The notes under the pieces: model-generated
Told to the model about the DNA's origin: nothing
The model's input: only the letters and a program-made list of their open reading frames with translations
The model's database searches: none
Shown here: in pieces, positions 34,001-53,067 of the stretch
Position numbering within the stretch: position 1 is the stretch's first letter
Layout: each line of letters begins with the position of its first letter
NCBI GenBank assembly: GCA_002778465.1
Contig: PFBV01000002.1
Location: 2,312-66,311 of the forward strand
DNA length: 64,000 nt
Reading direction: 5' to 3'
Source: Candidatus Magasanikbacteria bacterium CG10_big_fil_rev_8_21_14_0_10_36_32
Lineage (GTDB): Bacteria; Patescibacteriota; Patescibacteriia; Magasanikbacterales; GWA2-37-8
Translations under genes and position numbers: made by a program

Positions 34001-36127
34001 ACGCCCAGTAATAATGTATATAATTATCAGATATATGACTATGATAGCAATAAAAATTCAAAAGGAAAGTTTTGTCCAATAAACAGAGAAACTTTGCGCA
34101 AGGATGGCGATACAATGCGAATGTGTGCGAATCCAACTTGGGATGATGATAATCAAACCTATTCTGAATGTCCGCCGTCGGGTATTCTCGCTGCCGATGG
34201 TACGCGTTGGGTAAATAACAACTATGAAAATAAATATTTCCATCGCAATGAAATAGAAAGAATTGATATTGTTTTTGATAGAATAGGCGATGATCAATAT
34301 GCTGATGGATATATTAGTTTTATAACAGACAGTATTAACGCTGTTGAAGGTCATGCTTTTGATACGGAAGAACATTTTTTAAATAAAGAAGGAGAAAGCG
34401 CGACTAAGGGCGTGGTTGATAATTATGAAATGAGATGTCCGGATTGGAATAGTATTGAAGATGGATTGGGAAATTTAAGAGCTTGGGAATGGCGCGGTGG
34501 AGTAGGTGTTCCATCGTGGACTTTGCCTGATGCGGATGATACAACATTAAGTAAAATGCAAGTTCTCGCTCAGGGTGTTTGTGAAGATTTATACAGAGAA
34601 GTTCAAGTTAAATCAAGTGAAGTAAATCAGAAAAATTTGGCTATAAGAGTGGTTTGGGATGGAGATTATCATTTACGCGGTATTTGGGTAAATTTGGAAA
34701 ATACGGGGTCGGCTGATGTAAACGCTGGATTCTTTTTCGTAATCCATTTTAATGATGGCCGTTGTGAAAAATTTGCCAAAGTTGCCACCGATACTGCTTC
34801 AAAAGATTTTGCTTTTAAACCATTCACTAATAATTTAGCGACAGGCAAAACAATCAATATGGGTTCCGCGCCGGTTGGTATTACTTTAACTGACAGAGTT
34901 TCTAATTTAAACGGTGGAAATTACGGATTAGCTTGGGGCGAGGGAGAATATTTAGAACCGCCAAGCGCCAGTGTTAAAGAAGCCTTTGTAAATCCGTTTA
35001 TACCATGGCCCAATACGCATCTTTTTATTGATACTGTGATTTTTTCACAGGGCGGCGATTATTTAAAAAATTATGAAATGACCAATTTTAAAGCCGGCGT
35101 GCCGTTGGTTTGGGCAAGATACGGATTGGCAAAATATGAAGACGGAGGTATTTATGATGGACCTGATTATACAACATTTAATAGTGAGATTTTTGATGTT
35201 TCAACTGTAGATATGCCGTGGGAAATTATGTTGGAAAATATGTACGCCAAAGTTTTTGGACAGTATGAGCAAAGTTACAGTGGTGGTATGCCGACTGAAT
35301 TTACATTATTATCCGGCACGGAATTAGATATGGCAAATTCTGCTAACGCTATCAAAAGCGGATTAAAAATTTATCCGCCTCATGTGGCCGCGCCGATTAT
35401 CGGTTCAACCGGAGATGATTGGCAGTTGGATGCCATATCCGTTAATGACAGGGTGTCCGGTGATATTTATTTAGTCAGCGGTTCGCAGGTGCATATTAAA
35501 TTTTATGCTTGGGCTCATGGTAATCAAATGCCATTGAGAAAAATCTGGGTTGATAAAGGTGATGGAATTAAAATCAGCAATGATAGTGTCAGTTTTGGCA
35601 ACCGCAAATTTAAATGCGCCGAAGGCACTTGTGGCGCCACTGCTGGCGGCTGGCAATTTCCTTGTGAAAATAATGATGATTGTGCGCCATTGTATAGTGA
35701 TTCAATCACGGACGATTCTACTGCCTGTTATTATCCGGCTGCATATGACCATCGTAAGTTTGGTAATACCGGAGATACCGGTTGTCATGAAGGTCCGTAT
35801 GATTTTGTTACTGATTTTAATTGTCCTTACGGCGATTTGACGCATTGGCCTGTTAGTTGGTTGGAACCGGAAGAACAGGCTTATATTCAAAGTCAATTTG
35901 GAGATATTAGTTATGTTTGTATGGTACAACCAAAAGTCCAAGTGACTGATAATTGGGGTTGGTGTAATGGAACTTGTAAAACTACTTATGCTGGAGGTGG
36001 TTCTAATATTGAGGGTGATGGTTGTTATGAAGATTATAGTGGGAAAGATTGTTCAACCGACGAATATGGCAATAACAAAGCTTGGACTAAATATAACGGA
36101 AGATTAATCATTATTCCAACACAATAA
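28031..36127 (+). CDS. Giant (~2,698 aa) secreted/anchored cysteine-rich protein of unknown function
   Basis: ATG at 28031 (track start 28016 is TTG). N-terminal signal/anchor (ILMALFIVSGFFGTAIFGVEKAQA). At least nine C-x6-C-[RST]-x-[FYV] motifs lie between nt ~29.7 and 32.45 kb. Three (W/Q)GYC motifs are present. A CBM/galactose-binding-like module (VVFQDNFENEEIGDWSGG...VFIDNIKLMEI) sits at nt ~31.04-31.45 kb. Many CxxxDC-type Cys clusters occur in the C-terminal half. A strong terminator follows. Confidence 0.8.
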   Translation: MMKCPRKISLKILMALFIVSGFFGTAIFGVEKAQAQYDNQINASFLSWQAQGEAEKAKAEVQSNLLKNKNYMVMNAVINAMSYFANKISYDMAVWLASGGKGQAPFSSTSGFFKYLGQVTGDSLGESLGSLGESLGLNICDLPDPRLDLALQLGLNFHYAEPTPKCSWQDLKKAYSVENFKSKYLSQEGTIGRLSASVTVKDTDFGIWTDARAKIDGIAVQKENAAQADREEGSGMKAVTDLISGQVKTPAVVVKDTMMKQSADSKMTKEEAKKTGEVWGAFGAGATQVAYKAASTFISTMLGTVLKNFMEGGMLPGGHKVCNPGLTLTGVNLEPCSSDSSGGNNLADNYYADARNTDNRAAAQAMFSQLLIPQIKTLDNYNLIASLAECSPENLSPDSCVVDQSFLQILQSADNGESLTVKQAMEKGWLHGDWKMISSLDKAASQKQDCSQSAYCQRNMTFLRQARILSVGFEFAALLSPVNNPVSLKEVVDNFYTVGSPYYHLINPHWVIKLPKIRCKAFTFSSIAQNGARLEECSDLQHCVGYNKDGSCQTWGYCMKERPIWKFNANYCDSQYSTCRAFTDSDGNSVGYLVRTLDTSFCGEDTDGCRRYSAGKVYASATNSVWLPEEIKYNTVSNYFYNSSLYFNKKLTSCDAKDDGCSAFKLASKTDTLLYLRKAPDYLGCYDADLKSVPAKLYDGIAWPKNLTELSLVTPQNTEACKNYAQVCLPEEENCNLYTSVLNQEAIPGKFKPAEIVSMTAGQQLVWNDQCDASCVGYAAYKEMPSSYTNGENLAYIIPSSGNTCTSYDAGCSAFTNLSTTNPSGMEQTEYFSYLRSCILPDQTKQKTFYLYESSESGGYKLQTFVLEKDATGAPKQIWRDISEIDSFGDCDSTSYAAGTADPDCHQFNDDGGNIYYKYLSKTILVSENCNPYRLNNTELVDGQCPFDFDGFGNRVGNAVEKINEACYYYGLPVGDTRGAGETKVCSAATNSCRAYKGNAGNNVRVVFQDNFENEEIGDWSGGLGGSLEISLESNQINGHSLKNFGQDGFYRQNVEVAEGKSYVLTFWAKGNAIIFPSFQDEGVYKLSFGDAVSLTDVWHYYSFGPLEFNQSVTSTYLNFNISGTGLKNVFIDNIKLMEITDYLYLVKNSLSVNQICDSNLEDNMPGEALGCTAYKDPLNNIYNLTNFSYLCREAAVGCTAVLDTYNTLNTAEPRTYNVWLYGEMINLDGRSAEVVIGGKTFSCIVPTGAKGCYVDIFGPTLAQIVSVSVPGILTSSTIYIPGDTPTSSPIYLVANKSATCKSENIGCRSVGKGTVTRDGVLNPLSSEYEDVAVKNDPALFDDVLCGSESVGCRGYTSGDSKYYFKDPKIIGQRVCAYMSAKNDSGLPIMGWYWKDNKMCGDSSGFCSSDADCAAGVKCQNVPCYPLYYKFNETQGAIEWGLWSFGSTQYKGFVGQCPEEQNGCTEFIDRASSAQVSGKKCAFTGKKCELNSDCNEEENDYCKENVSGTYYLLNDGVLAETKNKCNGMVSQAEGCILLDQTDKPNKYWNTTSTYEVSQSAQDAFVVPVDKAELNDANIILKVTHDRECAEWGYCDLKQDYKDEDTGETTSRCYHLGVCQKATGSSIFNKECLVPVTQWDDKNQELSLAHYNSREAYWDSLDYSGYSVPWLYSIADLTARPLAGDNFHLVHVDYSEDAAGDCNGSADNGDVCGLDDTGKCFNGECLHSPNNYSSLTNHLTLLNCRGNAEDSSPFPSSVLTDESASLDYKIFKSGFESVNLCYDKSGSVVNCDCSYKKLRTSAGDVYTPSNQSVGSSYVCSGGTKQGKFCNGKDDITTCGSDGICGVIQTLSAMNGWQGYCLERDTRQFINGTETGNCLTWWPIEVPPGTTNIWDIDDSAGYQIAEGKQDRFMCLVNEPVINDPEIMMHILLYGSHVSAANDYNIQQLPKSYKIQTAGLDHSFKITDLPPNAAVSGCSDNNADDDFYDPLPGTPSNNVYNYQIYDYDSNKNSKGKFCPINRETLRKDGDTMRMCANPTWDDDNQTYSECPPSGILAADGTRWVNNNYENKYFHRNEIERIDIVFDRIGDDQYADGYISFITDSINAVEGHAFDTEEHFLNKEGESATKGVVDNYEMRCPDWNSIEDGLGNLRAWEWRGGVGVPSWTLPDADDTTLSKMQVLAQGVCEDLYREVQVKSSEVNQKNLAIRVVWDGDYHLRGIWVNLENTGSADVNAGFFFVIHFNDGRCEKFAKVATDTASKDFAFKPFTNNLATGKTINMGSAPVGITLTDRVSNLNGGNYGLAWGEGEYLEPPSASVKEAFVNPFIPWPNTHLFIDTVIFSQGGDYLKNYEMTNFKAGVPLVWARYGLAKYEDGGIYDGPDYTTFNSEIFDVSTVDMPWEIMLENMYAKVFGQYEQSYSGGMPTEFTLLSGTELDMANSANAIKSGLKIYPPHVAAPIIGSTGDDWQLDAISVNDRVSGDIYLVSGSQVHIKFYAWAHGNQMPLRKIWVDKGDGIKISNDSVSFGNRKFKCAEGTCGATAGGWQFPCENNDDCAPLYSDSITDDSTACYYPAAYDHRKFGNTGDTGCHEGPYDFVTDFNCPYGDLTHWPVSWLEPEEQAYIQSQFGDISYVCMVQPKVQVTDNWGWCNGTCKTTYAGGGSNIEGDGCYEDYSGKDCSTDEYGNNKAWTKYNGRLIIIPTQ

Positions 36128-36140: not shown

Positions 36141-36178
36141 AAATCCCCCAACAATTTAGTTGGGGGATTTGTTTTTTT
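36141..36178. terminator. Bidirectional rho-independent terminator
   Basis: AAATCCCCCAAC-aattta-GTTGGGGGATTT followed by GTTTTTTT, with an A-run upstream that serves the minus strand. Confidence 0.8.
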
Positions 36179-36222: not shown

Positions 36223-36747
36223 TCAAGCGTAACCTGACTGAATCAGATTGCCATTGGATAGTATAGTCGCTATCAGCCAGCCGCAACTGCCGGTTTTTAC
36301 CAGTGGCAGATTCTTTCCTTGATAATCTCCCTTGAGAAAAGCGAGAGTGCCGTTTCCGGTAAAGTTTACCACGCACATATTTCCGATTTCCGGAGTGATT
36401 GTGACGGTCATCACCATGGTAGTTTCAGTGTTGTACCAGTCGCCGGCGATATGTGTCAGCTCATTGCAACTAGCAGGATCAATGAAAACCAGTTTGGACA
36501 ATTCCGTGTCCATCACACTGTTTTCCGGCTCGGTAATGATTGGCGGCAGATTGAGATCTGAATCGCCGTTCATTTCTGAATCGCCGTATTCATCCATCAA
36601 TTCGCCACCATCAATGTCTTCGTCATAAGGATAACATCCAGATGTTATAACGGCGAACAAGAGCATTACAGCAATGGCTATAATTGCAATGACAATTGTG
36701 GCAACCGCTCCTACTGTAACATGGGAATCATAATGTAAATTTCTCAC
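36223..36747 (-). CDS. Small putative lipoprotein, atypically GC-rich
   Basis: GTG start preceded by AAGGAGG. TM/signal segment ending in the lipobox-like AVITSGC. Acidic linker, then a beta-rich domain. A hand-counted 60-nt sample (36241-36300) has 28 G+C (47%). Confidence 0.55.
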   Translation of the reverse strand: MRNLHYDSHVTVGAVATIVIAIIAIAVMLLFAVITSGCYPYDEDIDGGELMDEYGDSEMNGDSDLNLPPIITEPENSVMDTELSKLVFIDPASCNELTHIAGDWYNTETTMVMTVTITPEIGNMCVVNFTGNGTLAFLKGDYQGKNLPLVKTGSCGWLIATILSNGNLIQSGYA

Positions 36748-36960: not shown

Positions 36961-36989
36961 TTGTTGTCTTCTTTAATTTATGGTATAAT
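36961..36989 (+). promoter_or_regulatory. Extended -10 promoter candidate for the T4SS-like operon
   Basis: TTGTTG, 17 nt spacer, TATAAT with TGn immediately upstream (tggTATAAT). Confidence 0.4.
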
Positions 36990-37094
36990 ATGAGTATTAA
37001 ATTAGCTGTAAAAAGGCTATAAGCGAACGAAGATGAGTGAAATAATCGTCGAGAAGGCGGATATTTCCAAGTCAAGAAGCTTATATTATTATAT

Positions 37095-40000
37095 ATGCTA
37101 CAGACTTTAGCCCGGACCGGGCGAAAATTTTGGAATTTTATCAGACCGCGCAGAAAGTGGGGTCTTATTTCGCTTTTTATTTTTGCCGGTGTCGGTTTGT
37201 GTGTTTATTTTTTTGGCGGAACATTGGTAAATTCAGCCGGTGGTTCTGAAGAAGTATATCAAGGCACTTTGCTTACTAAAATAGTAACCGATATTATGGT
37301 TTGGATTGCCGGATTTTTTATTCAGGCAACAGTTTTTATAATGGATTTTGTTATTGAAATAGCCGGTTATAGTAATTTTATAAATTCCAAAGCGGTTTTA
37401 TTTGGTTGGACGCTGGTGCGTGACATTGCCAATATGTTTTTTGTTGTGATTTTATTGATAATCGCTTTTGGTACGGTTTTGGGCGCTGAAACATATAGCT
37501 GGAAAAAACTTTTGGTAAAATTTGTTTTAGCGGCCGTGTTAGTGAATTTTAGCCGGATAATTTGCGGAATAATTATTGATGCCGCTCAGGTGTTTATGAT
37601 GACTTTTTTGAATGGTGTGGCGGCGGTAGCCGGTGGAAATATTATTAATGCTTTTAAATTAAATGATGTTTTAAGTTTTGATCCGAATGTGCAACCGGAA
37701 GGAATGACAGATGTCAGTGTTTTAGGTTCAGCCATTGCTTGTATGTTTTTTGCGGCGATTGCCGCCTTTACCATCGGCGCTTATTTTATTGTTTTACTCG
37801 GACGTTTAGTGACTTTATGGATTTTAATAATTTTATCGCCGTTGGCTTTTGTTTTAAATGTTATTCCAAAAACTCAATCTTATGCCGGACAATGGTGGTC
37901 TGAATTTACCAACAATGTTATTGCCGGTCCGATTTTGGCTTTTTTTCTTTGGTTGTCTTTTGCTGTGGTTGGCGATGGAATGCCTCATAATGAATTAAGC
38001 GATAATTCGGCTTTTATGTTAAATACCGAATCAGTGGAAAGTACGGGGAATAATAATGTAATGGGTGGTTTGGCTAAAGTTATGGAATGGGGAAATTTGG
38101 CAAATTTTATAATCGCCGTCGGTATGCTTTTAGCCGGCGTAAAAGCAACTCAAAAATTAGGTGTGATTGGTTCCGGTATGCTCGGGAGCGCGGTGGAAAT
38201 GGGCAAAAAAGTTGCGACAGTGGCGACTGGAATAGCGGCTGGCCGATGGTTGGCGCAAAAAGGTGTTGAAGGAACAAAAATTGCAGGCAAAGGCGTGTTG
38301 ATGAAAGCGCCATTTGTTGGCGGAGATGCTTGGAAACGGCGCGGTAGAACTATTGCCGGAAAAGTGTCTTCAAAAGTTCAGGATATTCAATATGCCCGCG
38401 AACAGGCGGCAAAAAAATTAGAGAAAAAAGGTGGTTTTGGAAAATTTGCCGCTGGAATTATTGAAACTGCAACTAAAAAAGAAGAAGCGTCTAAACAATG
38501 GGGGAAATTAGCCGCGATGAAAAAAGAAGTCAGAATGGAAGATATGGGTTTAGGTTCGCGTCAAGTTGGAAAAGATACTTTAGTGGAAAAAGTTCGTTTA
38601 GATACGCTTAAGGCGCAGAGTACTGCCGCCAAAGAACGCTGGTATAATAATGCTTTAGTTAAATTTTATAACGCGCCGGATGAATTAAAAGATTTACAAA
38701 CTCAGCGTGGCGGTTTAGCGACCAGAGAATCAGCGGAACAGGCGATTGTTCAGGAAGCCAGTTTGGAAATTGCTAAAGCTCAAGCTGAGTTGGAGAACAT
38801 AAAAGACAATCCGGAAAAAATCAAACAATTGAATGATAGTATTGCGCAGAGTACTGCTATTAAACAAAATGCTGAACAAAATTTATCTCAGATTGTTGAT
38901 ACCAAAAAAACACTTGATAAACAAGTTGATACTATTTTCAAAGACGATAAAAAATGGAACAAAGACAGTTTGATTGGAAAGGATATTTTAGAACAGAGAA
39001 TCCAAAAGGAAAAAAATATGTCTGATGTGGCCGCCGCTCAAGGTATGATGGAATTAAGTTATTTAAATACCGAAGCCGGCAGACAAGCTCAAGTCAACGC
39101 GGCGGAATCAAAAATTATTCAACAACAGATGGGAGAAACAGTCAATGCTCAAAAACAATTGGTTGAATTAAAAAAGATTGAAGAATTATTGAAAAAGCCG
39201 CAGCCGGGACAAGATGCGTCTGCTTTGTCCGCACGTTATCAGGCTTTGCAGCAGGATATGTATTCCTCCAAAGCCGGCGGAGAACAATTGCGGATTGATC
39301 AAGCTCGCGAGGCGGAAAAGAAATTAGCTGTGGCTCGTGATGAAAAATTAAAACAATCCAGTCAGTTACCTCGTTATTTAAGCCAAGTTTTGCAAAAACA
39401 AAATAAAGAGGATATTGATATGTATTCCTCAAAAAACTTTGACCAAATGATGGCTAATATTAAATTTTTGAGCGGTCAAATGGAAAAAGAGACAGATGTT
39501 GACAAGAAAAGCATAATGCAAAAAGATTTACAGAATTGGGTGGTAGCCTCCTTTAATCGCGGTTCTGATTTTGGCTTAGCCGCTTTGAGTACGGCAAAGA
39601 AAAATAAAGATATTTCCGCTGATAATGTGGATAGCGCCAGAGCTGCTCACTTATCGGCCTTTTTAGGGGAAGAAGTGGAACAGTCATCTGAAGGTGTGAA
39701 TAAGGCTATGGAAAAAATGAAAAAATTGCAGGGTGAAAACTTTGACGCTTTTATGACGAATTATGTTGGCGGTTTATCAATGATGGCTGATAATGGCGCG
39801 GTAACGCACGGCGGTTTGTATAAAATGGTGACTGATAAAAATACCGGCCGGCAGACTTATGAAGTGACACATAAAGATTATGATAAAGATTTGATTAAAT
39901 CCAAAAGAGATTATCATTTGTCTCAGGCTAGGCAAGCCGGTCGCGGATTTAATGGTTCTTTAGATTTTAAAGACGGTAAATTTAAATTAGACAGTGAAGT

Positions 40001-40247
40001 ATCGGTTAACCATGTTGTAAATTTGATTGGCGCTAGAACTTCGGTCGGTTATGCTAATATGCACAAGATGAATTTAGATTCATTAAGCTCTGCCATTGAA
40101 AATACTGATAAGGAAGAATTTTTGAAACAATTAGGTGAAAAATTAAGTAAAAGCATTACTGAAACAAAAGCGATGGAGATGTTATTAAAACGCATTTCGG
40201 GAAAAGCTTTAGATAAAATTAATAAATATATTACATCAAATAAATAA
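37095..40247 (+). CDS. Polytopic membrane protein (VirB6/TrbL/PrgH-like topology) with a ~700-aa K/E/Q-rich coiled-coil extension
   Basis: ~8 hydrophobic helices in the first ~340 aa (e.g. ANMFFVVILLIIAFGTVLG, LWILIILSPLAFVLNVIP). The remainder is low-complexity helical sequence rich in K/E/Q/A. Confidence 0.5.
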   Translation: MLQTLARTGRKFWNFIRPRRKWGLISLFIFAGVGLCVYFFGGTLVNSAGGSEEVYQGTLLTKIVTDIMVWIAGFFIQATVFIMDFVIEIAGYSNFINSKAVLFGWTLVRDIANMFFVVILLIIAFGTVLGAETYSWKKLLVKFVLAAVLVNFSRIICGIIIDAAQVFMMTFLNGVAAVAGGNIINAFKLNDVLSFDPNVQPEGMTDVSVLGSAIACMFFAAIAAFTIGAYFIVLLGRLVTLWILIILSPLAFVLNVIPKTQSYAGQWWSEFTNNVIAGPILAFFLWLSFAVVGDGMPHNELSDNSAFMLNTESVESTGNNNVMGGLAKVMEWGNLANFIIAVGMLLAGVKATQKLGVIGSGMLGSAVEMGKKVATVATGIAAGRWLAQKGVEGTKIAGKGVLMKAPFVGGDAWKRRGRTIAGKVSSKVQDIQYAREQAAKKLEKKGGFGKFAAGIIETATKKEEASKQWGKLAAMKKEVRMEDMGLGSRQVGKDTLVEKVRLDTLKAQSTAAKERWYNNALVKFYNAPDELKDLQTQRGGLATRESAEQAIVQEASLEIAKAQAELENIKDNPEKIKQLNDSIAQSTAIKQNAEQNLSQIVDTKKTLDKQVDTIFKDDKKWNKDSLIGKDILEQRIQKEKNMSDVAAAQGMMELSYLNTEAGRQAQVNAAESKIIQQQMGETVNAQKQLVELKKIEELLKKPQPGQDASALSARYQALQQDMYSSKAGGEQLRIDQAREAEKKLAVARDEKLKQSSQLPRYLSQVLQKQNKEDIDMYSSKNFDQMMANIKFLSGQMEKETDVDKKSIMQKDLQNWVVASFNRGSDFGLAALSTAKKNKDISADNVDSARAAHLSAFLGEEVEQSSEGVNKAMEKMKKLQGENFDAFMTNYVGGLSMMADNGAVTHGGLYKMVTDKNTGRQTYEVTHKDYDKDLIKSKRDYHLSQARQAGRGFNGSLDFKDGKFKLDSEVSVNHVVNLIGARTSVGYANMHKMNLDSLSSAIENTDKEEFLKQLGEKLSKSITETKAMEMLLKRISGKALDKINKYITSNK

Positions 40248-40285
40248 AATTAATACTGATAAATTAAGCAAGATAAGTTTTGAAT

Positions 40286-41311
40286 ATGGCATCAATTGTT
40301 AGACAACTAAACGATACTGAACTGCGAGAAAAAAATCTCGTCTATTTTGGTTTTGATACGCAGGAGATGGAAGGTTTTTGGAATGCGTTGCATGAATATT
40401 TTAATGAAGCCTCACCATCTGATGACAGACAATATTGGTGGAGTTTTTTCCGTTGGTATACTGATGCCACATGGCAGGATATGACACGAATAGATAGGGA
40501 TGTTTTTGAAAGGATTGCAGTTGGACGGCAAATACCAATGGCTTTGATTTTGGGTTTTGATGTTTGGAATAGAATTATGGCTTATCTGTCATTAAAAGGA
40601 TTAGATGAAGAAGATACGCAAAACTTATATGTGAAAATTCGCGTCGCTTTTCTTAATTCAGAAGCAATAGTTGGTTATGGAAAAGGAAATTCCGAAATTA
40701 AAATAGTTGATTTAATAAAAGAATTGACTTTGATTAACAGTCGTGGGCGGGATTCAATGGCTATGGCGGAATTTTATGAAAAAATAAAAAATTTATTATT
40801 TCCGTCTAATGATAGTTGGTTAAAAGAGTTTATTGATGTTGATTATAAAGAAGCGGTGATGAAAATGGTAGATTTGATGGATTTTTTTATTACAGTGGAA
40901 TCTGACGATTTACCGGGGATAATGGATATGTATTTGCATTCAGAATTATATCCAACTGCCTCAACTGTTGCTCCGACTTCCGCTAAACAGGTTCAGTCTA
41001 TATCATTTAATCAACCGGAGACGGTCAAAGAAAAAAAAGTTGTTTTACCTGCTAAAAAAACGGAAGTTAAAGCTATTGTTTCAACACCGACTCCAATTCC
41101 GCCCAAGCCTGTCAAACCGCCTGTTCCGTCTTATTTAGATATAAAAAAAGAAGTTAATTTGGTTTTTAAAAAAGATCAGGACGGGGAATTTGTCGATTTA
41201 GACGGAGTCCTGAATAAATTATCTGAACTGGCTGTAAAATATAGCGATAATAAAATCGCTGAACTTTATTATTTTGACGAAAAAGAAAATAAATTTAAGT
41301 GGGGAGTTTAA
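40286..41311 (+). CDS. Hypothetical cytoplasmic protein (T4SS-operon member)
   Basis: ATG at 40286 (track start 40280 is TTG). No TM helix. Pro-rich linker (TPTPIPPKPVKPPVP) before a small C-terminal domain. No recognisable family motif. Confidence 0.5.
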   Translation: MASIVRQLNDTELREKNLVYFGFDTQEMEGFWNALHEYFNEASPSDDRQYWWSFFRWYTDATWQDMTRIDRDVFERIAVGRQIPMALILGFDVWNRIMAYLSLKGLDEEDTQNLYVKIRVAFLNSEAIVGYGKGNSEIKIVDLIKELTLINSRGRDSMAMAEFYEKIKNLLFPSNDSWLKEFIDVDYKEAVMKMVDLMDFFITVESDDLPGIMDMYLHSELYPTASTVAPTSAKQVQSISFNQPETVKEKKVVLPAKKTEVKAIVSTPTPIPPKPVKPPVPSYLDIKKEVNLVFKKDQDGEFVDLDGVLNKLSELAVKYSDNKIAELYYFDEKENKFKWGV

Positions 41312-41315
41312 AATT

Positions 41316-42461
41316 ATGTCTGATAACGCAACAATTTTAATTAAAAAAGCTGATGGCACAACCGAGAAGATAACTCTGGCTGAATTTCATGCTCGACAAA
41401 AGCAGTCTGCTCCGGCAGTTTTACCACCGGCGGATATTTCCCATTCTTCCGTTAAACCGGTTAAAATTGAAAAAAAAGTTGAACCGCTAAAATCTTTTAA
41501 TCCGCCAAAGGTAGAATCCAAAATTGAATTGTCAGAAAAAATTAAAAAAACAGAATTTACCAAAGATGATGCCGTTTCGTTGTTGGATGAATCATTGGAT
41601 GATGAAAAACCGAATATGCCTTTAGTCAGCCAGTCGCGTGTTTCTCAAGCTGACGAAATTATAAATAAATTAAATTTTAGAGCGCCGGATACGATTCGAT
41701 TACGAGGATTGATTCAATTGCGGTTGAAAGAAGTGCGAAGCGATGAAGAAACAAGAAGTTGGCTGATTCGGCCGATTGTTGACGGAGGCGCCGGAATCAA
41801 TGCGATGCAAGCTGAAGATGTTTTAAAATTATGCCGTGGAGAAAAAATTTCAAATAACTTTGAAGAAGTTAGTCCTTTAAAAAAAGGTTTACCCGGCGGT
41901 TTAAATGAACTGCCAATGGCTTCCGGCAATAAAACCGCTCCGATTGTTTATAAAGAACAGCCGGTTCCGGCAATTATGCCCAATAAAAAATCTTTTGTTG
42001 CCGCTTCTCCGGCCAAAGAAATAAAAAATTTAGGAGAATTAAAAAAAATATCCGATCAGAATTTGTCTGTTGACAGACATAATAAGATTTTATCTGATGA
42101 CAAAGAAATTCCGTCTGTTCGTCATATGGTGCGAGATATTATTCCGAACAAAAAAACCAGTATGAGTCCGACTGACGAAATTCGCTTTATATCATTGGTT
42201 GATTTTCGTCGTTTGTCCGCTAATCCGGAAGAGGCGATTGCCAGATTAAAACAAAAATTTATCAATTTGAAAGATGAATCGTATCTGCTTTATTTGGATG
42301 CTTTACAGGTTTGGCGAATGAGTCCGTTGTATCAGGATTATGTTGGCAGTGTTATTCGCGCGTTAAATCAAAATGTCCGTCTTAACAATTCATTGTTAGA
42401 TAAAAACAAAATACAAATGACGGAAATATCAGCGATTATTAAAATGGAAAATAGTTTTTAA
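41316..42461 (+). CDS. Hypothetical protein (T4SS-operon member)
   Basis: ATG at 41316, 5 nt after the upstream stop and preceded by GGGGAG. The ORF-track start 41274 overlaps the upstream gene. No recognisable motif. Confidence 0.5.
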   Translation: MSDNATILIKKADGTTEKITLAEFHARQKQSAPAVLPPADISHSSVKPVKIEKKVEPLKSFNPPKVESKIELSEKIKKTEFTKDDAVSLLDESLDDEKPNMPLVSQSRVSQADEIINKLNFRAPDTIRLRGLIQLRLKEVRSDEETRSWLIRPIVDGGAGINAMQAEDVLKLCRGEKISNNFEEVSPLKKGLPGGLNELPMASGNKTAPIVYKEQPVPAIMPNKKSFVAASPAKEIKNLGELKKISDQNLSVDRHNKILSDDKEIPSVRHMVRDIIPNKKTSMSPTDEIRFISLVDFRRLSANPEEAIARLKQKFINLKDESYLLYLDALQVWRMSPLYQDYVGSVIRALNQNVRLNNSLLDKNKIQMTEISAIIKMENSF

Positions 42462-42463
42462 AT

Positions 42464-42889
42464 ATGCAACAATTTGTCGTACCTCAATTTATTGATGTGG
42501 AAGATAAAATTTTCGGACCAATCACGGCGCGGCAGTTTGTGATTTTATTGGTGGCAACATTAATTATTTTTCTCACTTATAAATTAGCTGATATTACATT
42601 ATTTATTTTTTTAACTTTGGTAATAGGCGGTTTAGCTTTAGTTTTTGCTTTTGTTAAAGTAAACGGACAGCCGTTCCATTATGTTATTTTAAGCATGATT
42701 CAGACATTACGCCGACCGAGTTTAAGAGTTTGGAATAAAACTTTTGACAAAAGCGAATTAACTCATTATCGTGAAGAATCAAAAGTTGTGGTTGTTGAAA
42801 AAATTAAACGAGTGCCAAAATTGTCTTACAGCCGTATTCGAGATTTATCTTTGGTGGTAAATACCGGCGGTTATTATAAACCTGAATAA
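42464..42889 (+). CDS. PrgI-family (VirB3-like) small T4SS membrane protein
   Basis: N-terminal VPQFIDVEDKIFGPITARQFVILLVA followed by two TM helices, as in Gram-positive conjugation PrgI/VirB3-like proteins. It sits upstream of VirB4. Confidence 0.65.
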   Translation: MQQFVVPQFIDVEDKIFGPITARQFVILLVATLIIFLTYKLADITLFIFLTLVIGGLALVFAFVKVNGQPFHYVILSMIQTLRRPSLRVWNKTFDKSELTHYREESKVVVVEKIKRVPKLSYSRIRDLSLVVNTGGYYKPE

Positions 42890-42891
42890 TT

Positions 42892-43581
42892 ATGAAAAAT
42901 AAAAAAGCGGTCAATAAAAGAAATGCCGTTCCGACTACACAAAAAAATACGGCTATCGCTGAAATTAAACATGATACTGTAGTGGTAAAAGATGGTACTT
43001 TGCGTTCGGTTTTGATGGTGTCCAGTATTAATTTTGCTTTAAAAAATGACGATGAACAGCAGGCGATTGTGTCTAATTATGTTTCTTTTTTAAATTCGCT
43101 TGATCATCCTTTGCAAATTCTTATTCAATCCCGTCAGCTTAATATAAAACCGTATTTGGAAAGATTGGCGGACAAAGAAAAAGAACAGCCAAATGAATTG
43201 TTAAGAATGCAAATTGCCGATTATCGTTCGTTTGTTTCAGAATTGGTCAATTTGGGAAAAATTATGAGTAAACATTTTTTTGTGGTGGTGCCTTACGATC
43301 CGCTGACAAATAAAAAAAGAGGTTTTTGGTCGCGTTTGCTTGAAGTTATTAATCCGGCCATTACAGTTCGTTTGAAAGAAGAAAGATTTTTGCAGAGAAA
43401 GAGAGATTTGGATATGCGAGTAAGACAAATTCAAGGCGGTTTGCAAAGTATGGGGTTGGAAGTTGTTAAATTAGATACTCAATCGTTGATTGAACTTTAT
43501 TATTCCGCGTATAATCCGGATATCGCTCTTAGCGAACCGTTGGCGGATGTGGTGGAAACCATGCAATTAGAAAACGCTTAA
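42892..43581 (+). CDS. Hypothetical protein between the VirB3-like and VirB4 genes
   Basis: 229 aa and soluble. The segment IKHDTVVVKDGTLRSVLMVSSINFALKNDDEQQAIVSNYVSFLNSL resembles the extreme N-terminal module of Gram-positive VirB4-type proteins. This is by-eye inference only. Confidence 0.45.
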   Translation: MKNKKAVNKRNAVPTTQKNTAIAEIKHDTVVVKDGTLRSVLMVSSINFALKNDDEQQAIVSNYVSFLNSLDHPLQILIQSRQLNIKPYLERLADKEKEQPNELLRMQIADYRSFVSELVNLGKIMSKHFFVVVPYDPLTNKKRGFWSRLLEVINPAITVRLKEERFLQRKRDLDMRVRQIQGGLQSMGLEVVKLDTQSLIELYYSAYNPDIALSEPLADVVETMQLENA

Positions 43582-43591
43582 TTTTTTATTT

Positions 43592-45463
43592 ATGGCATTT
43601 AAACCAAGCTCAATTAAAGCAGAAAAAGAATCTACTGGTCGTCTTAAAGAAGATGAAAACAAAATAAAGAAGCAGACGGCCGAAGAAATGATTACTTTGG
43701 AAGAAGAAAAGATTTTTCGCGAAGGTGTTGTCAGTATCCGTGATTTAATAGCGCCTTCCGCTTTTCGCGTTGAATCCAGTTTTATACAATTGGGTGATTT
43801 ATATTGCCGGACTATTTTCATTACCGCTTACCCGAGATATATTTCCATCGGCTGGAGTTCGCCGGTTATTAATTTGTCGGTCACCATGGACATCTCAATG
43901 TTTTTTTATCCGGTTAAATCAGCTGTTATTTTAAAACAATTAAAAAATAAAGTCGGCGCTTTGGAAGCGCAAATTAGTTCCGACACAGAAAAAGGCGCGC
44001 CTCGCGATCCAATTCGGGAAACAGCTTTGCGCGATATTGAACAATTGCGAGATAATTTAACGCAAGGAATTGAACATTTTTTTCAATTTTGTTTTTATGT
44101 TACTCTTTACGCCAAAAGTAAAGAGGAATTGGATCAAACCACTGAAGATATTGAAAATATTTTCGGTTCAAAACTGATTATGAGTCGCAAAGTTTTATAT
44201 CAGGCGGAACAAGGTTTTAATTCCACTTTACCGATGGCAAATGACGAATTGTACATTGCTTTTAATATGAATTCGTCTCCGATTGCCGCTTCTTTTCCAT
44301 TTATTTCCGCGGAATTAACCTCAGATGATGGTATTCTTTATGGCATTAATCGCCATAATAACAGTTTGATTTTGTTTGACCGGTTTTCTTTGCAAAATGG
44401 CAATATGGTGGTTTTCGCTTCGGCCGGTGCCGGAAAAAGTTACGCCGTTAAACTGGAAGTTTTGCGCACAATGATGATGGGAACCGATGTGATGATTATT
44501 GATCCGGAAATGGAATATAAACATCTTTGTGATGCGGTTGGTGGAACTTACATTAGTATTTCGTTGTCTTCGGAAGCAAAAATCAATCCATTTGATTTGC
44601 CCCGTCCGGTCGGTTCTGATATTTCCACTGAGGATATTATTCGTAGCGCCGTTATTACCATGAAAGGCTTGTTGCGTATTATGTTGAATGGTTTGACGGT
44701 GGAGCAGGATTCAATTATGGATAGAGCTTTGATTGAAACTTACGCCAAGAAAGATATTACGCCGGAGGCGGATTTATCCAATATTAAACCGCCGATTATG
44801 CAGGATTTAGTGGAAGTTTTGGAAGGTATGCAAGGTTCCGATGAATTGGTAATGAAATTAAAAAAATATACCGAAGGAACTTTCAGTGGACTGTTTAATT
44901 CGCCGACTAATGTTGATGTTAAAAATCAATTGGTGATTTATAGTGTTCGTGATTTAGAGGATGAACTTCGCCCGATTGCTATTTATTCAATCGTTAACTA
45001 TATTTGGAATGTTGTACGTTCGGAAAGAAAAAAACGAGTTTTGGTGATTGATGAAGCTTGGTGGCTGATGATGCATGAGGACAGCGCCAGATTTATTTAT
45101 GGTTTGGTTAAACGCTGCCGAAAATATTATCTCGGAGTGACTACTATCACTCAGGATGTGAATGACTTTTTGAAATCTCAATATGGACAGGCGATCGTTA
45201 CCAACTCGGCTTTGCAGTTGTTGTTGCGTCAGTCGCCGGCGGCGGTGGATTTGGTTCAGCGGGTGTTTATGTTGACTGACAGCGAGAAATATTTGTTATT
45301 GGAAAGCGGAGTGGGCGAGGGTATATTTTTTGCCGGCAATAAACATGCCGCCATTAAAGTTGTTGCTTCTTATACAGAAGATCAGTTGGTTACCACCAAT
45401 CCGGAACAATTATTGGCTATAGAAAAAGCAAAGCGCGAATTTGAAGAACAGAGTAAAAAATAA
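43592..45463 (+). CDS. virB4: VirB4/PrgJ-class T4SS ATPase
   Basis: Walker A FASAGAGKSYAV, Walker B RVLVIDEAWWLM, downstream GVTTITQD motif. The N-terminal half (IRDLIAPSAF..GDLYCRTIFITAYPRYISIGW) is as in Gram-positive VirB4 homologs. Confidence 0.85.
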   Translation: MAFKPSSIKAEKESTGRLKEDENKIKKQTAEEMITLEEEKIFREGVVSIRDLIAPSAFRVESSFIQLGDLYCRTIFITAYPRYISIGWSSPVINLSVTMDISMFFYPVKSAVILKQLKNKVGALEAQISSDTEKGAPRDPIRETALRDIEQLRDNLTQGIEHFFQFCFYVTLYAKSKEELDQTTEDIENIFGSKLIMSRKVLYQAEQGFNSTLPMANDELYIAFNMNSSPIAASFPFISAELTSDDGILYGINRHNNSLILFDRFSLQNGNMVVFASAGAGKSYAVKLEVLRTMMMGTDVMIIDPEMEYKHLCDAVGGTYISISLSSEAKINPFDLPRPVGSDISTEDIIRSAVITMKGLLRIMLNGLTVEQDSIMDRALIETYAKKDITPEADLSNIKPPIMQDLVEVLEGMQGSDELVMKLKKYTEGTFSGLFNSPTNVDVKNQLVIYSVRDLEDELRPIAIYSIVNYIWNVVRSERKKRVLVIDEAWWLMMHEDSARFIYGLVKRCRKYYLGVTTITQDVNDFLKSQYGQAIVTNSALQLLLRQSPAAVDLVQRVFMLTDSEKYLLLESGVGEGIFFAGNKHAAIKVVASYTEDQLVTTNPEQLLAIEKAKREFEEQSKK

Positions 45464-45493
45464 TTCACTTTTTATTTAACAGGGTAAAACAAT

Positions 45494-46090
45494 ATGACTA
45501 CACTCCGCACAAGAATTTTTATTATTTTTAGCATATTTTTTCTGTTCGTTTTAGCGGTTAGCATTATTTTGATTGTGATTAATAAGCAAAAACAGGCGGT
45601 TATTGAAACAACTTCTACACCGTCGGCGATAGATTTTGATAATTTTACGCAGGATAAAATTAGCGCGCCGGCTGCCCAAGTGACGCCAACTCAAGGAATA
45701 ACCGTAAAACAACCAACCACTGAGGAACAAATGAAAAATGCCGCTAAACAGATAGCAAAGATTTTTGTGGAACGCTATGGCACTTATTCCACTGATAATA
45801 ATTTCAGCAATATTAAAGAATTGGATACAATGTGCAGTCGGGATTTGTGGAGTGTTTTAAGTTCGCGGATAACTGACACTCAGGTCAATAACGGATTTGT
45901 CGGTGTTACCACTAAAGCGGTTACCTCAGTAATCACTTCTTGGCAAACAGATAAAGCTATTGTTGAAATTACAACTGTCCGGACAGAAACAAAAGATGGC
46001 GTCACTTCTTCAAAAAATCAAAAAGCTACAGTTACTTTGGTTAATGTTCAGAATAATTGGCTGGTGGATGATGCAAAATGGGGACAATAA
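45494..46090 (+). CDS. Bitopic membrane protein, VirB8/PrgL-like candidate
   Basis: One N-terminal TM helix, a T/P/Q-rich linker, and a ~115-aa C-terminal alpha+beta domain (AAKQIAKIFVERYGTYS...ATVTLVNVQNNWLVDDAKW). This is compatible with an NTF2-like fold, and the gene follows VirB4. Confidence 0.35.
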   Translation: MTTLRTRIFIIFSIFFLFVLAVSIILIVINKQKQAVIETTSTPSAIDFDNFTQDKISAPAAQVTPTQGITVKQPTTEEQMKNAAKQIAKIFVERYGTYSTDNNFSNIKELDTMCSRDLWSVLSSRITDTQVNNGFVGVTTKAVTSVITSWQTDKAIVEITTVRTETKDGVTSSKNQKATVTLVNVQNNWLVDDAKWGQ

Positions 46091-46106
46091 AAAAATATAT
46101 TTAACA

Positions 46107-46141
46107 AAAACCCCGATATCAAATCGGGGTTTTAAATTTTT
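46107..46141 (+). terminator. Rho-independent terminator closing the T4SS-like operon
   Basis: AAAACCCCGAT-atcaa-ATCGGGGTTTT followed by AAATTTTT. Confidence 0.7.
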
Positions 46142-46852
46142 ATGGATAATTTTTTTAAGTTTATCAAAGATATTCTTTTTCCGATTTTTTGCGTTGATTG
46201 CGGAAAAGAAGGCGAATGGTGGTGTTCGCCTTGCCGTAAGAAAATCAAGTCAGTTTTAATTGCCAAATGTCCGGTTTGTCACCGCCATAGCGAATTTGGC
46301 GCAGTTTGTGTTGTTTGTCGCTCGGTTTCCTCTTTGGATGGTTTGGTTTCCTATTTGCCTTATTTTGAAAAATATCCGGCCGCTATTTTGATTCATAAAT
46401 TTAAATATCAATACGCTAAAGATATTGTTGAAATTTGGAAAAAAATAATGTCGCCGATAAATTTTTTTTGGTTGGAAAATAAAAAAACAGTTGCTATTAT
46501 TCCTGTGCCGTTGCACAGCCGGCGTGAACGGGAGCGCGGTTTTAATCAGGCCGATTTACTTGTCGGAGTTTTTCATGATAAAATGTCTGCTGAATTTTCA
46601 ACAGTTGATTTTCAGATTAATCGTGATTTAATTCGTCGCCGGTTTACTCAACAGCAGGCGAAATTGACTAAAGAGGAAAGGTTGGAAAATATAAAAGATG
46701 CTTTTGATTGGCAAGGCAAAGAATGTCCGAAAACGATTATTTTGATTGATGATGTTTTTACCAGTGGCGCCACTATGCAGGAATGCGCGAAAATTTTAAA
46801 ATCCGCCGGCGCGGAAATTGTTTGGGGTGTCACTCTGTCCAGAGCGGAGTAA
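46142..46852 (+). CDS. comFC: ComF-family protein (ComFC: double zinc ribbon plus phosphoribosyltransferase domain)
   Basis: CVDCGKEGEWWCSPC and CPVCHR...CVVCR zinc ribbons. PRTase loop IILIDDVFTSGATMQE. Confidence 0.8.
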   Translation: MDNFFKFIKDILFPIFCVDCGKEGEWWCSPCRKKIKSVLIAKCPVCHRHSEFGAVCVVCRSVSSLDGLVSYLPYFEKYPAAILIHKFKYQYAKDIVEIWKKIMSPINFFWLENKKTVAIIPVPLHSRRERERGFNQADLLVGVFHDKMSAEFSTVDFQINRDLIRRRFTQQQAKLTKEERLENIKDAFDWQGKECPKTIILIDDVFTSGATMQECAKILKSAGAEIVWGVTLSRAE

Positions 46853-46925: not shown

Positions 46926-47084
46926 ATGAGGCTGTTGGGTAGTTTCTTTGGTGGCGCGTCAATCGGAGGATTGATTGCTATGTTCATCACAATCCATCCG
47001 GAAATGGTAATTTTTTGGATGGTTTATAGCATCGTGTGCGCCATAATTTCTGCCGGAATGCTCATTGGGTCCAGAAACAAGTAG
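46926..47084 (+). CDS. 52-aa hydrophobic micro-protein (below the ORF-track threshold)
   Basis: GGAGGTG RBS 5 nt upstream of the ATG. Encodes MRLLGSFFGGASIGGLIAMFITIHPEMVIFWMVYSIVCAIISAGMLIGSRNK (two TM helices). A promoter-like TTGACT-N17-TATTTT lies at ~46859-46887, and a terminator follows at 47105. Confidence 0.4.
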   Translation: MRLLGSFFGGASIGGLIAMFITIHPEMVIFWMVYSIVCAIISAGMLIGSRNK

Positions 47085-47104
47085 TTCTTTTTTAGAAAAA
47101 TCCG

Positions 47105-47131
47105 CCAGCTGTTTTTAACAGCTGGCTTTTT
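47105..47131 (+). terminator. Rho-independent terminator
   Basis: CCAGCTG-tttttaa-CAGCTGG followed by CTTTTT. Confidence 0.65.
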
Positions 47132-47160: not shown

Positions 47161-47180
47161 CGAGATGATTTGTTCAGTGT

Positions 47181-47209
47181 TTGACTTTTCAATTTATTTT
47201 TGCTATTAT
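47181..47209 (+). promoter_or_regulatory. Sigma70-like promoter positioned as for a tRNA gene
   Basis: TTGACT, 17 nt spacer, TATTAT. The -10 ends 12 nt before the GGAGAGG of the tRNA 5' fragment. Confidence 0.5.
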
Positions 47210-47221
47210 TATCCGAGAATT

Positions 47222-47273
47222 GGAGAGGTGGCTTCTGAGCTCCTGCCTGCCGGTAGGCAGGGGTCGAAAGCGG
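47222..47273 (+). pseudogene. Duplicated 5' portion (nt 1-29) of tRNA-Ser(GCU), interrupted by 3-nt and 20-nt insertions
   Basis: GGAGAGGTGGCT|tct|GAGCT|CCTGCCTGCCGGTAGGCAGG|GGTCGAAAGCGG compared with the tRNA 5' end GGAGAGGTGGCTGAGCTGGTCGAAAGCGG at 47529-47557. All 29 shared nt are identical. Confidence 0.7.
47242..47261. repeat. 20-bp GC-rich palindrome CCTGCCTGCCGGtAGGCAGG (second copy at 53222-53241)
   Basis: One mismatch from a perfect palindrome. The perfect copy CCTGCCTGCCGGCAGGCAGG is at 53222-53241. GC content contrasts strongly with the background. Confidence 0.8.
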
Positions 47274-47528
47274 TAATAAAATTTATGTATTGCGTGTATT
47301 TTTTACAAAGTCTGAAAGATAAAGGTTTGTACATCGGAAAAACGAATAATATTAAACGTCGGTTATCTGAACACAACGCCGGTAAAGTTCAATCGACAAA
47401 AAGTAGAAAACCTTTTATTTTGTTGGGATTAGAAAAATACCAAACAGAAAAAGAATGTTTGGCGGCAGAATTAGAATGGAAAAAAGGATATAAACGCGAA
47501 CAATTAAAAGTTAGATATAGTCTATAAT
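47274..47528 (+). mobile_element. GIY-YIG cassette lying between the tRNA-Ser 5' duplicate and the intact tRNA-Ser
   Basis: The cassette is bounded by 29-nt direct repeats (the tRNA 5' part). It contains only the 80-aa GIY-YIG ORF, whose stop is 1 nt from tRNA position 1. Confidence 0.45.
47285..47527 (+). CDS. Small GIY-YIG nuclease-superfamily protein (paralog of 14865-15125)
   Basis: MYCVYFLQSLKDKGLYIGKTNNIKRRLSEHNAGKV...KPFILL. The start is taken at ATG 47285 because the longer track ORF (47165) reads through the tRNA fragment and the palindrome. Confidence 0.75.
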   Translation: MYCVYFLQSLKDKGLYIGKTNNIKRRLSEHNAGKVQSTKSRKPFILLGLEKYQTEKECLAAELEWKKGYKREQLKVRYSL

Positions 47529-47624
<96 letters not shown>

Positions 47625-47781: not shown

Positions 47782-47967
47782 ATGAACTGCCCCGATATGA
47801 AGAATAAACTTTTATACTGTATCCCAAAAATTCTAGCAATACTGCTGGGGATATTTTTTATCATTTTCGGTGAATTTGATGATAGTCCCGGAGCGCAACT
47901 ATTAGGTGTGGTATTAGTTGTGATCGGTATTGTTAGTATATTTAAAAACAATAAAAAATCTGCATGA
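47782..47967 (+). CDS. Small two-TM membrane protein
   Basis: 61 aa. Preceded by TTCAAT-N17-TATAAT at ~47745-47773. Two hydrophobic helices. An alternative ATG is at 47797. Confidence 0.4.
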   Translation: MNCPDMKNKLLYCIPKILAILLGIFFIIFGEFDDSPGAQLLGVVLVVIGIVSIFKNNKKSA

Positions 47968-52797: not shown

Positions 52798-52822
52798 CTG
52801 TGTTGGCAGGATAATTTAAACT

Positions 52823-53061
52823 AAAAAACAAACCACCCCGCATTATTTTGCGGGGTGGTTTAATTGATATTGGGGGAATGAACCCCCTAGAGTTCCGTAT
52901 TCAAGAAGATGTGTCAAAGGTGGAGATAAGCCGTGGCCTATGCAGACCGTTAACACATCCCCATGCTTGTGGTGAATACGGGAAATTGCTCGTTTTTTCT
53001 CGTTAAAAGGGGCAATTTCTCGTATTCTTACAGCATTGGATGTCCGTAGATTTTCAAACAA
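52823..53061 (-). ncRNA. Candidate ~240-nt structured non-coding RNA (class unknown)
   Basis: A minus-strand promoter (TTGACA-N17-TACAAT, 53096-53068) and the terminator at 52861-52823 bracket a region with no ATG-initiated ORF or RBS. It contains a 16-bp stem with one mismatch (GAATACGAGAAATTGC / GCAATTTCCCGTATTC, plus-strand coordinates 52974-53027). A competing GAATACGG segment and a GGGGG-n6-CCCCC hairpin are also present. Confidence 0.35.
52830..52861. terminator. Bidirectional terminator
   Basis: AAACCACCCCGC-attatttt-GCGGGGTGGTTT with A-run and T-run flanks on both sides. Confidence 0.8.
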
Positions 53062-53067
53062 CAAAGT

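Follow-up and report, generated by a model that had tools for sequence, protein, structure and literature searches.

A predicted chromosomal type IV secretion locus of the ABY1 class in a Magasanikbacteria genome, its two-chain VirB4 and its linkage to comF

The stretch of DNA analyzed here, 64,000 nt of contig PFBV01000002.1 (positions 2,312 to 66,311; assembly GCA_002778465.1) from Candidatus Magasanikbacteria bacterium CG10_big_fil_rev_8_21_14_0_10_36_32, is referred to as the window. It contains a cluster of seven open reading frames (ORF1-ORF7, 37095-46090) that very probably encodes a chromosomal Patescibacterial type IV secretion system (T4SS) of the class ABY1 (Magasanikbacteria type), derived from monoderm systems of the MPF-FATA type, with its conjugation functions lost and a likely role in exchange with a host. 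The locus is not a self-transmissible conjugation apparatus, because no relaxase, type IV coupling protein (T4CP) or mobility signature was found in the window and because its chromosomal synteny is strict across many species, with housekeeping genes around it in every relative. A first-pass annotation, made from the sequence letters, had proposed a non-conjugative chromosomal T4SS repurposed in a reduced-genome bacterium, which matches the conclusion published for Patescibacteria (PMC12102498, PMC10633639). The locus is an already published kind of machine, and the reading is correct as a rediscovery. The cluster is composed of the following features (coordinates in the window, strand, description).

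36981-36989, +, putative extended -10 promoter-like element TGGTATAAT (TGnTATAAT), found by direct sequence reading 105 nt 5' of the ORF1 start codon
37095-40247, +, ORF1, 1050 aa, extended VirB6-like polytopic membrane protein of the TrbL_3 type (residues ~20-355)
40286-41311, +, ORF2, 341 aa, soluble protein; helical domain in the N-terminal part, then a Pro/Lys-rich linker, then a C-terminal module of ~60 aa that is conserved (YNDP.I.DLYYFDE..G.F.WN)
41316-42461, +, ORF3, 381 aa, soluble protein; KKADGT motif in the N-terminal part, helical module (RL..RLKD.R...GGLGL) in the centre, conserved domain in the C-terminal part
42464-42889, +, ORF4, 141 aa, PrgI/VirB3-like protein with two transmembrane (TM) helices (Pfam PF12666)
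42892-43581, +, ORF5, 229 aa, TrsD/TraC-like protein, detached N-terminal part of a split VirB4 (NCBIfam TrsD, collinearity)
43592-45463, +, ORF6, 623 aa, VirB4 ATPase of the monoderm CD1110/MPF-FATA type, comprising the middle and C-terminal domains (NCBIfam, Pfam and PDB matches)
45494-46090, +, ORF7, 198 aa, bitopic VirB8-like protein with an N-terminal TM helix, a disordered linker and an NTF2-like ectodomain
46107-46133, +, GC-rich hairpin (11-bp stem and T-run) between ORF7 and comF, candidate partial terminator or attenuator
46142-46852, +, comF, ComFC-type gene (double zinc ribbon and phosphoribosyltransferase-like domain), conserved eighth gene of the cluster

All seven co-directional ORFs of the first-pass annotation are present at these positions on the + strand, separated by gaps of 38, 4, 2, 2, 10 and 30 nt. 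The tight packing it described therefore stands, with a measured range of 2-38 nt instead of 2-35 nt. The promoter-like site was likewise read directly in the sequence, while the consensus promoter scan did not list it since there is no matching -35 element.

ORF6 matches the NCBIfam model of CD1110-family VirB4-like ATPases (NF045971) with 355 bits, above the cut-off of 325, as well as the Pfam families P-loop_TraG (PF19044; E 2.2e-29) and CagE_TrbE_VirB (PF03135), both above their gathering scores, and its profile matches the solved VirB4 domain of Thermoanaerobacter (PDB 4ag5; E 6e-57). The Walker A (SAGAGKSY) and Walker B (VLVIDEAWW) motifs are present, as noted on first reading, and their residues are invariant in an alignment of 25 orthologues. 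Together with a mean column identity of 75% in the same alignment, this points to purifying selection.

Directly upstream of virB4, ORF5 matches the NCBIfam TrsD model (E 5.5e-10, below the family's own cut-off of 200 bits). ORF5 and ORF6 align side by side, and in the same order, to models of the full-length protein. In the VirB4_plasma model (894 positions) they cover positions 90-223 and 288-890, respectively, in the CD1110 model (752 positions) 18-93 and 171-730, and in phrog_2666 5-89 and 129-364. The same holds for a single-chain VirB4 of 845 aa from a Bacillus mycoides plasmid, in which residues 29-227 align with the ORF5 profile (E 2.6e-15) and residues 250-832 with the ORF6 profile (E 7e-88). 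This collinearity identifies ORF5 as the N-terminal piece of VirB4, and ORF5 and ORF6 together as one VirB4 in two chains. In Patescibacteria, virB4 is most often accompanied by TrsD, a remote relative of the VirB4 N-terminus (PMC12102498), and the ORF5 orthologues in Paceibacteria-type loci carry the label PF26593 TraC-like. A direct hhalign comparison of the ORF5 profile with the cluster's own VirB4 profile gave no match (E 0.51) with shallow alignments (Neff 2.3), and the ORF5 profile had no meaningful match among PDB sequences. We rejected the PHROG label ‘terminase large subunit’ (phrog_2666) for both proteins. This family is either mislabelled or VirB4-like, and its match is collinear as in the VirB4 models. 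Of the three partners in which no motif had been recognized initially, ORF5 is thus removed, while for ORF2 and ORF3 the observation holds.

Three further ORFs presumably provide the membrane part of the machine. ORF4 matches Pfam PF12666 (PrgI) with 39.4 bits (E 8.8e-10; gathering score 27) and carries the N-terminal PrgI-like motif VPQFIDVEDKIFGPITARQF, so that its assignment to PrgI/VirB3 is borne out. For ORF1, the VirB6 fold was confirmed structurally, and its homologues give TrbL_3/TrbL matches, in line with its first reading as a VirB6-like protein; the ORF1 profile matched only coiled-coil and low-complexity noise among PDB sequences. The membrane core is followed by a coiled-coil-like C-terminal tail of ~610 aa (607 measured, against ~700 aa in the first-pass annotation, which was right on the K/E/Q-rich composition). 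This tail is rich in K, E, Q and A (44% K/E/Q/A/D), with five prolines and no cysteine, and it is variable among orthologues, the total length of which ranges between 475 and 2018 aa. The excess of K/R over D/E (17 versus 6) in residues 353-443 is a positive-inside hint and suggests that the tail starts in the cytoplasm. ORF7 (COU29_00575, identical sequence, annotated “hypothetical protein”) was thought to be bitopic and VirB8-like with a small alpha+beta ectodomain. The AlphaFold2 model shows such an ectodomain (predicted local distance difference test score, pLDDT, 85.6), and structure comparison confirmed the VirB8 fold.

ORF2 and ORF3 are both multi-domain proteins with Pro/Lys-rich linkers. 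Neither has a match in Pfam, NCBIfam, PHROG or PDB sequences, and we found no relationship between the two. Their counterparts were not detected in pCF10, the Bacillus plasmid, the Pontibacillus locus or Paceibacteria-type loci, and comparison with the Prg/Pcf proteins of pCF10, including PrgD-G, PrgM and PcfA/B/H, revealed no relation. The conserved C-terminal domain of ORF3 is ~110 aa long with the motif MGPVEEI..TL.DFRRLS..P.EAA.RL.QKF..ESY..W..SPLY. The ORF3 family comprises 2,459 clusters at 50% identity, the named members of which are all ‘hypothetical’ and have no Pfam domain; ORF3 itself is COU29_00555 (identical sequence), annotated “hypothetical protein.” The central GGLGL...QA of ORF3 was considered as a helix-hairpin-helix and rejected, as the spacing is off the GhGxxxA consensus and no family of this motif matches. 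We should note that a different conserved protein sits upstream of PrgI in Paceibacteria-type loci (L083, 15472-16500; L085, 11600-12079). It has an N-terminal helical domain (FW.TY..LPE..KEAIFSE...) and a Pro/Glu/Lys-rich tail, an architecture like that of ORF2 and ORF3, with no detectable sequence similarity to them.

Relatives of the locus, hereafter ABY1 loci, were retrieved by a VirB4 scan of species-representative genomes, which confirmed 559 related stretches. The best 80 of these, which were kept, are Patescibacteria-type metagenome-assembled genomes (MAGs) of Magasanikbacteria, Uhrbacteria, Falkowbacteria and others with VirB4 identities of 69-87%. Many of the cluster-bearing Patescibacteria-type contigs are deposited as ‘uncultured Gammaproteobacteria bacterium’ MAGs (third party annotation, TPA, assemblies) and are evidently mislabelled. 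Conservation was counted with hidden Markov model searches, on the same strand and in the same order, in those loci whose sequence reaches far enough on the side concerned. PrgI and TrsD are present in all 77 such loci, TrsD always immediately upstream of virB4, and ORF3 occurs in 73/73 at the same position. VirB6 (52/54) and VirB8 (71/72) are nearly as constant, and ORF2 is found in 30 of 65. The synteny comparison across Patescibacteria proposed in the first-pass annotation thus shows that gene order is kept in the best 80 loci. Paceibacteria-type loci adjoin dnaA, in agreement with the literature, and have only a four-gene core in common: TrbL_3/VirB6, PrgI, TraC-like/TrsD and VirB4.

This conservation extends beyond ORF7. 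The first-pass annotation had let the operon end at a strong terminator (46141). The hairpin at 46107-46133 is indeed there, ending 8 nt 5' of the comF ATG, but it does not close the conserved gene set, since comF follows ORF7 on the same strand in 64/68 loci and the conserved unit thereby reaches past 46141. In 19 of 54 loci comF overlaps ORF7 or begins at most 8 nt past its stop, and a spacing of 1-4 nt is frequent. The product matches TIGR00201 comF (E 4.4e-30), GntX (E 1.6e-23) and the Pfam domains DZR_2 and Pribosyltran. Judged by this gene arrangement, comF is a member of the conserved unit and effectively an operonic eighth gene, and the hairpin may serve in termination, attenuation or mere transcript stabilization. 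Hsp20 and VanW are downstream neighbours in a minority of loci (15/80 and 14/80, respectively).

The position of comF brings up the main rival explanation, in which the ABY1 T4SS is a DNA-uptake machine that imports host or environmental DNA like ComB of Helicobacter pylori or the archaeal Ced system, passing single strands to ComF, perhaps with ComEC, and with ORF2 and ORF3 as cytoplasmic adaptors. Besides the near-constant comF directly after the VirB8-like gene and its overlap or close spacing, comEC lies in the same window (12797-14278), and relaxase and T4CP were not found in the window, as in ComB. The idea has been put forward before (PMC11665869), and co-localization of comF, recG and radA in ABY1 has been reported (PMC12102498). 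ComB and Ced resemble the present locus in being T4SS-derived systems with no relaxase or T4CP, here linked to comF and comEC. They differ in composition, however: ComB is a diderm VirB2-4/6-10 system and Ced consists of CedA/CedB, so that only the VirB4-family ATPase homology is common. The CedB model scored 50.6 bits against a cut-off of 700 and CedD 21.6 against 600, and no CedA-like, VirB9-like or VirB10-like match was found among the window ORFs. Synteny by itself is no proof of functional coupling, and in the window a terminator-like hairpin stands between ORF7 and comF. Moreover, Southlakia epibionticum requires its T4SS genes for epibiotic growth, as transposon sequencing showed, while comEC, comF and dprA are dispensable and transformation needs comEC (PMC10633639). 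We consider dedicated DNA uptake unlikely as the explanation of the locus. A more elaborate version is a competence-wired nucleic-acid transport system, in which ORF3 (with ORF2) would be a cytoplasmic substrate-recruiting module replacing T4CP and relaxase, and a translationally coupled ComF would either receive single-stranded DNA at the VirB4 motor or deliver it there. This is quite improbable in our view; if true, it would be a third independently evolved T4SS-based system of DNA import or exchange, besides ComB and Ced.

The functions expected of a conjugative element were searched for in the whole 64 kb, in ORFs of at least 110 aa and in scanned small ORFs of the gaps, at the sensitivity of Pfam and NCBIfam. 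Within this scope there was no family match to a relaxase or MobC, a VirD4/TcpA T4CP or an integrase, and none to a VirB1-type hydrolase (SLT, CHAP or M23), with ORF7 and comF directly following virB4. The pilin families PF04956 and PF18895 had no match among the window ORFs either, although very divergent pilins may escape such a search. The absences listed by the first-pass annotation (relaxase, T4CP, VirB1-like hydrolase, integrase and pilin) hold at this sensitivity. The only cell-wall-related proteins in the window are a VanW/PG_binding_4 protein (50800-52797) and a DUF4015 protein (23635-24786), neither of the SLT, CHAP or M23 type. We considered three small ORFs with two TM helices (46926-47084, 47782-47967 and 53474-53680) as VirB2-like pilins and rejected them because none is conserved beside the cluster; the first also had no family match in NCBIfam and PHROG.

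An ordinary integrative conjugative element (ICE) or plasmid remnant would be expected to have its relaxase, T4CP and integrase just outside the window or too divergent to be recognized. The core genes do descend from monoderm conjugation systems, a tRNA-Ser(GCT) gene (47529-47624) with a GIY-YIG nuclease ORF beside it lies 1.4 kb downstream of the cluster, and a few Patescibacteria carry relaxases (PMC12102498). Yet neither an integrase nor a relaxase was found over ~37 kb upstream and 18 kb downstream, and the 3' end of the tRNA-Ser gene is single-copy in the window even with up to three mismatches, leaving no att-type repeat. GC content stays between 0.33 and 0.41 across the window, and neither GC content nor GC skew steps at the T4SS locus. 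The flanks consist of housekeeping genes, as first described, with family hits for LeuRS, a two-component cluster, ComEC, NusA, YidC, RF1, Sua5, RsmA, Hsp20, VanW, ClpP, SMC, S16, TrmD and the start of the 16S rRNA gene. Gene order is constant in the 80 species-level genomes (best 80 of 559 loci), including comF downstream in 64/68, and the published survey found relaxases in 103 genomes only, with 15 of 109 relaxase genes near virB4 (PMC12102498). With no integrase and no duplicated tRNA 3' end, an integrative conjugative element at this locus is very unlikely, and we regard the ICE or plasmid-remnant explanation as a whole as highly improbable.

The same absences could be taken as decay, the locus then being a non-functional relic of an ancient conjugative element that has lost the hydrolase, T4CP, relaxase and adhesin of classical systems and carries its VirB4 in two ORFs. 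This is at odds with the state of the genes. All ORFs are intact, VirB4 sequences of different species are 69-87% identical and do not vary in their catalytic residues, and 71-77 loci keep the gene order. The division into TrsD and VirB4 is of ancient origin and recurs in Pontibacillus and pGO1-type systems, and in S. epibionticum the homologues are essential (PMC10633639). A relic is therefore extremely improbable.

We thus return to a chromosomal ABY1-class T4SS that has lost its conjugation functions. Following characterised T4SSs, VirB3/PrgI and the N-terminal VirB4 piece (TrsD) would hold VirB4, a hexameric motor, at the membrane, the membrane channel and the cell-wall-spanning scaffold would consist of VirB6 and VirB8, and ATP hydrolysis would move a macromolecule over the single membrane at the point of host-cell contact. 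Protein or nucleic acid would be exchanged with the host, which is most likely by analogy with S. epibionticum. Several points weigh against this account. The function is drawn wholly from homology and from analogy with a different class, Saccharimonadia, and neither a VirB1-type hydrolase nor a VirB2-like pilin was found in the window, although both belong to the Saccharibacterial system. Other parts of the genome may hold a T4CP or relaxase, the window being 64 kb long and VirD4 homologues being commonly encoded far from virB4 in Patescibacteria (PMC12102498). Finally, the tight linkage of comF points to DNA, not protein, as the cargo.

Three further features of the window lie near the cluster.

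28016-36127, +, giant secreted protein of 2703 aa with 99 Cys; signal peptide ends AQA|Q; no Pfam or NCBIfam match
46926-47084, +, 52-aa ORF with two TM helices between comF and the second hairpin, not conserved in relatives
47104-47126, +, second terminator-like hairpin (10-bp stem GCCAGCTGTT/AACAGCTGGC followed by TTTTT), 3' of comF and the 52-aa ORF

In 15 of the 40 ABY1 loci with enough sequence, the VirB6-like gene is immediately preceded on its strand by a homologue of the giant gene. In the window, a strong hairpin (36141-36170) separates it from the T4SS operon, making it a separate transcription unit. Its recurrence is suggestive of a T4SS-associated Cys-rich protein, a candidate for a surface adhesin. 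A 174-aa bitopic ORF on the - strand (36223-36747), preceded by a strong Shine-Dalgarno sequence (AAGGAGG), lies between this gene and the operon; among the relatives, it is shared by the closest one (L002) only.

ComEC is seemingly dispersed. An ORF at 12797-14278 has the DUF4131 and Competence domains and lacks a metallo-beta-lactamase domain, and an ORF with the metallo-beta-lactamase fold is found at 15129-15986. Between them lie a class-I methyltransferase (14223-14843) and an 86-aa GIY-YIG ORF (14865-15125) with a weak match to group-I-intron endonucleases. The latter is one of two small stand-alone GIY-YIG nuclease-like ORFs, the other (47165-47527) ending 1 nt before tRNA-Ser(GCT). Directly upstream of comEC, a signalling cluster (2370-12794) encodes two response-regulator receiver proteins, a 273-aa protein with no assigned function, a surface protein of 1921 aa (domains Big_6, Big_13 and InlB B-repeat), a multi-PAS histidine kinase and a third receiver protein. 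A gene-poor gap of 966 bp (52798-53763) holds three terminator-like hairpins, a glycine-zipper membrane ORF (53474-53680, -) and a GC-rich structured stretch (~53200-53290); an Rfam scan of this gap gave nothing above noise. The 5' start of a bacterial 16S rRNA gene (63809-64000) marks the end of the window. Nearly all genes are on the + strand and the GC skew is constantly positive, so that the window lies on one replichore in leading-strand orientation.

The Patescibacterial T4SS was described experimentally in 2023 (Wang 2023, PMC10633639). A phylum survey in 2025 reported the MPF-FATA affinity, TrsD, PrgI, VirB6 and the missing relaxase, a detectable VirB8 nearly restricted to class ABY1, and comF/recG/radA in ABY1 loci (Quiñonero-Coronel 2025, PMC12102498). 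Genes for VirB2-like pilins near virB4 are frequent, not universal, in the phylum. The system is also covered in a nomenclature review of 2025 (PMC12857230), and effector delivery and ComB-like DNA uptake have both been proposed in print (PMC11665869). The present analysis adds the VirB4 split, shown directly by comparison with a homologue in one chain, the VirB6 and VirB8 folds of the ABY1 form, confirmed by structure, ORF3 (ORF2 less constantly) as lineage-specific unannotated members, and comF as an effectively operonic eighth gene. Few machines have been shown to be essential for epibiotic life in these bacteria; the Patescibacterial T4SS is one of them, and reviews call its function “completely unknown.” The locus offers a clean, fully annotated ABY1 example, with the universal core of VirB6, PrgI, TrsD and VirB4 joined by a VirB8-like protein, ORF2/ORF3 and comF, and ORF3 (73/73) and the near-constant comF are concrete handles on the question of DNA versus protein cargo.

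Among known systems, the Rickettsiales ‘Extended VirB6’ proteins share with ORF1 a polytopic VirB6 core followed by a very large hydrophilic C-terminal extension (PMC12857230). The extension sequences are unrelated, the tail here being K/E/Q-rich and coiled-coil-like. Monoderm ancestry of the locus is indicated by VirB4, since the nearest plasmid homologues, at 28-34% identity, come without exception from Bacillota or Actinomycetota, and by the gene order VirB6-PrgI-TrsD-VirB4 of Pontibacillus. The pGO1/pSK41/pIP501 modules (trsC-trsD-trsE / traC-traD-traE) are plasmid-borne and have, besides a relaxase and a T4CP (TraJ/TrsK), both a peptidoglycan hydrolase (TraG/TrsG) and surface factors. Unlike in these plasmids, none of the four was found here.

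The Enterococcus plasmid pCF10 has the order prgH-prgI-prgJ-prgK-prgL (B6-B3-B4-(B1)-B8), and the echo of it perceived on first reading agrees with the matches of ORF6 to PrgJ and of ORF7 to PrgL, the latter being its best match. The ORF6 profile aligns with PrgJ residues 225-772 (E 7e-49), and PrgJ is also a CD1110-family VirB4. In contrast to the split VirB4 described here, PrgJ is a single chain of 796 aa, to which ORF6 aligns from residue 225 onward. The PrgK hydrolase, the PcfC T4CP, the PcfF/PcfG relaxosome and the surface proteins PrgA/B/C are pCF10's own, whereas ORF2 and ORF3 have no Prg/Pcf counterpart and PrgH (266 aa) has no equivalent of the ~610-aa tail of ORF1.

The closest locus outside the phylum is that of Pontibacillus sp. 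ALD_SL1 (NZ_CP062975.1, 351-361 kb; L081, locus 7552-17105), the VirB4 of which is 34% identical. Here, too, VirB4 comes in two chains, a TrsD-like protein of 282 aa and an ATPase of 622 aa, with the order VirB6-like, PrgI-like, TrsD and VirB4. The locus differs in that a pilin-like gene precedes these genes and a peptidoglycan endopeptidase of 1050 aa follows them, and ORF2, ORF3, a detectable VirB8-like gene and comF are not there. The Pontibacillus locus is on an 898-kb replicon typed as non-mobilizable, beside flagellar genes, and may represent another non-conjugative chromosomal T4SS in Bacillota.

By similarity score, the ABY1 VirB4 profile ranks Paceibacteria-type VirB4 (811-821 bits) before Pontibacillus (457), the Bacillus plasmid (290) and PrgJ (157), and VirB4 identity is 69-87% to Patescibacteria MAGs versus at most 34% to any plasmid. 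This ranking by similarity is compatible with a place of ORF6 in the Patescibacteria-specific VirB4 clade. Unlike Paceibacteria-type loci, the locus is not beside dnaA/oriC and carries ORF2/ORF3, undetected in the former. It also differs from the Saccharibacterial cluster, in which a VirB2-like pilin array and an adjacent peptidase/lysozyme, neither found here, are both essential. Its nearest likeness is nevertheless to the Patescibacteria-clade T4SS as a whole (PMC12102498; S. epibionticum SEML1_0006-0019, PMC10633639), with which it shares a chromosomal location, no relaxase or T4CP found nearby, a monoderm-type VirB4 with adjacent TrsD, PrgI/VirB3 and VirB6, and, as the traits reported for ABY1, both VirB8 and comF.

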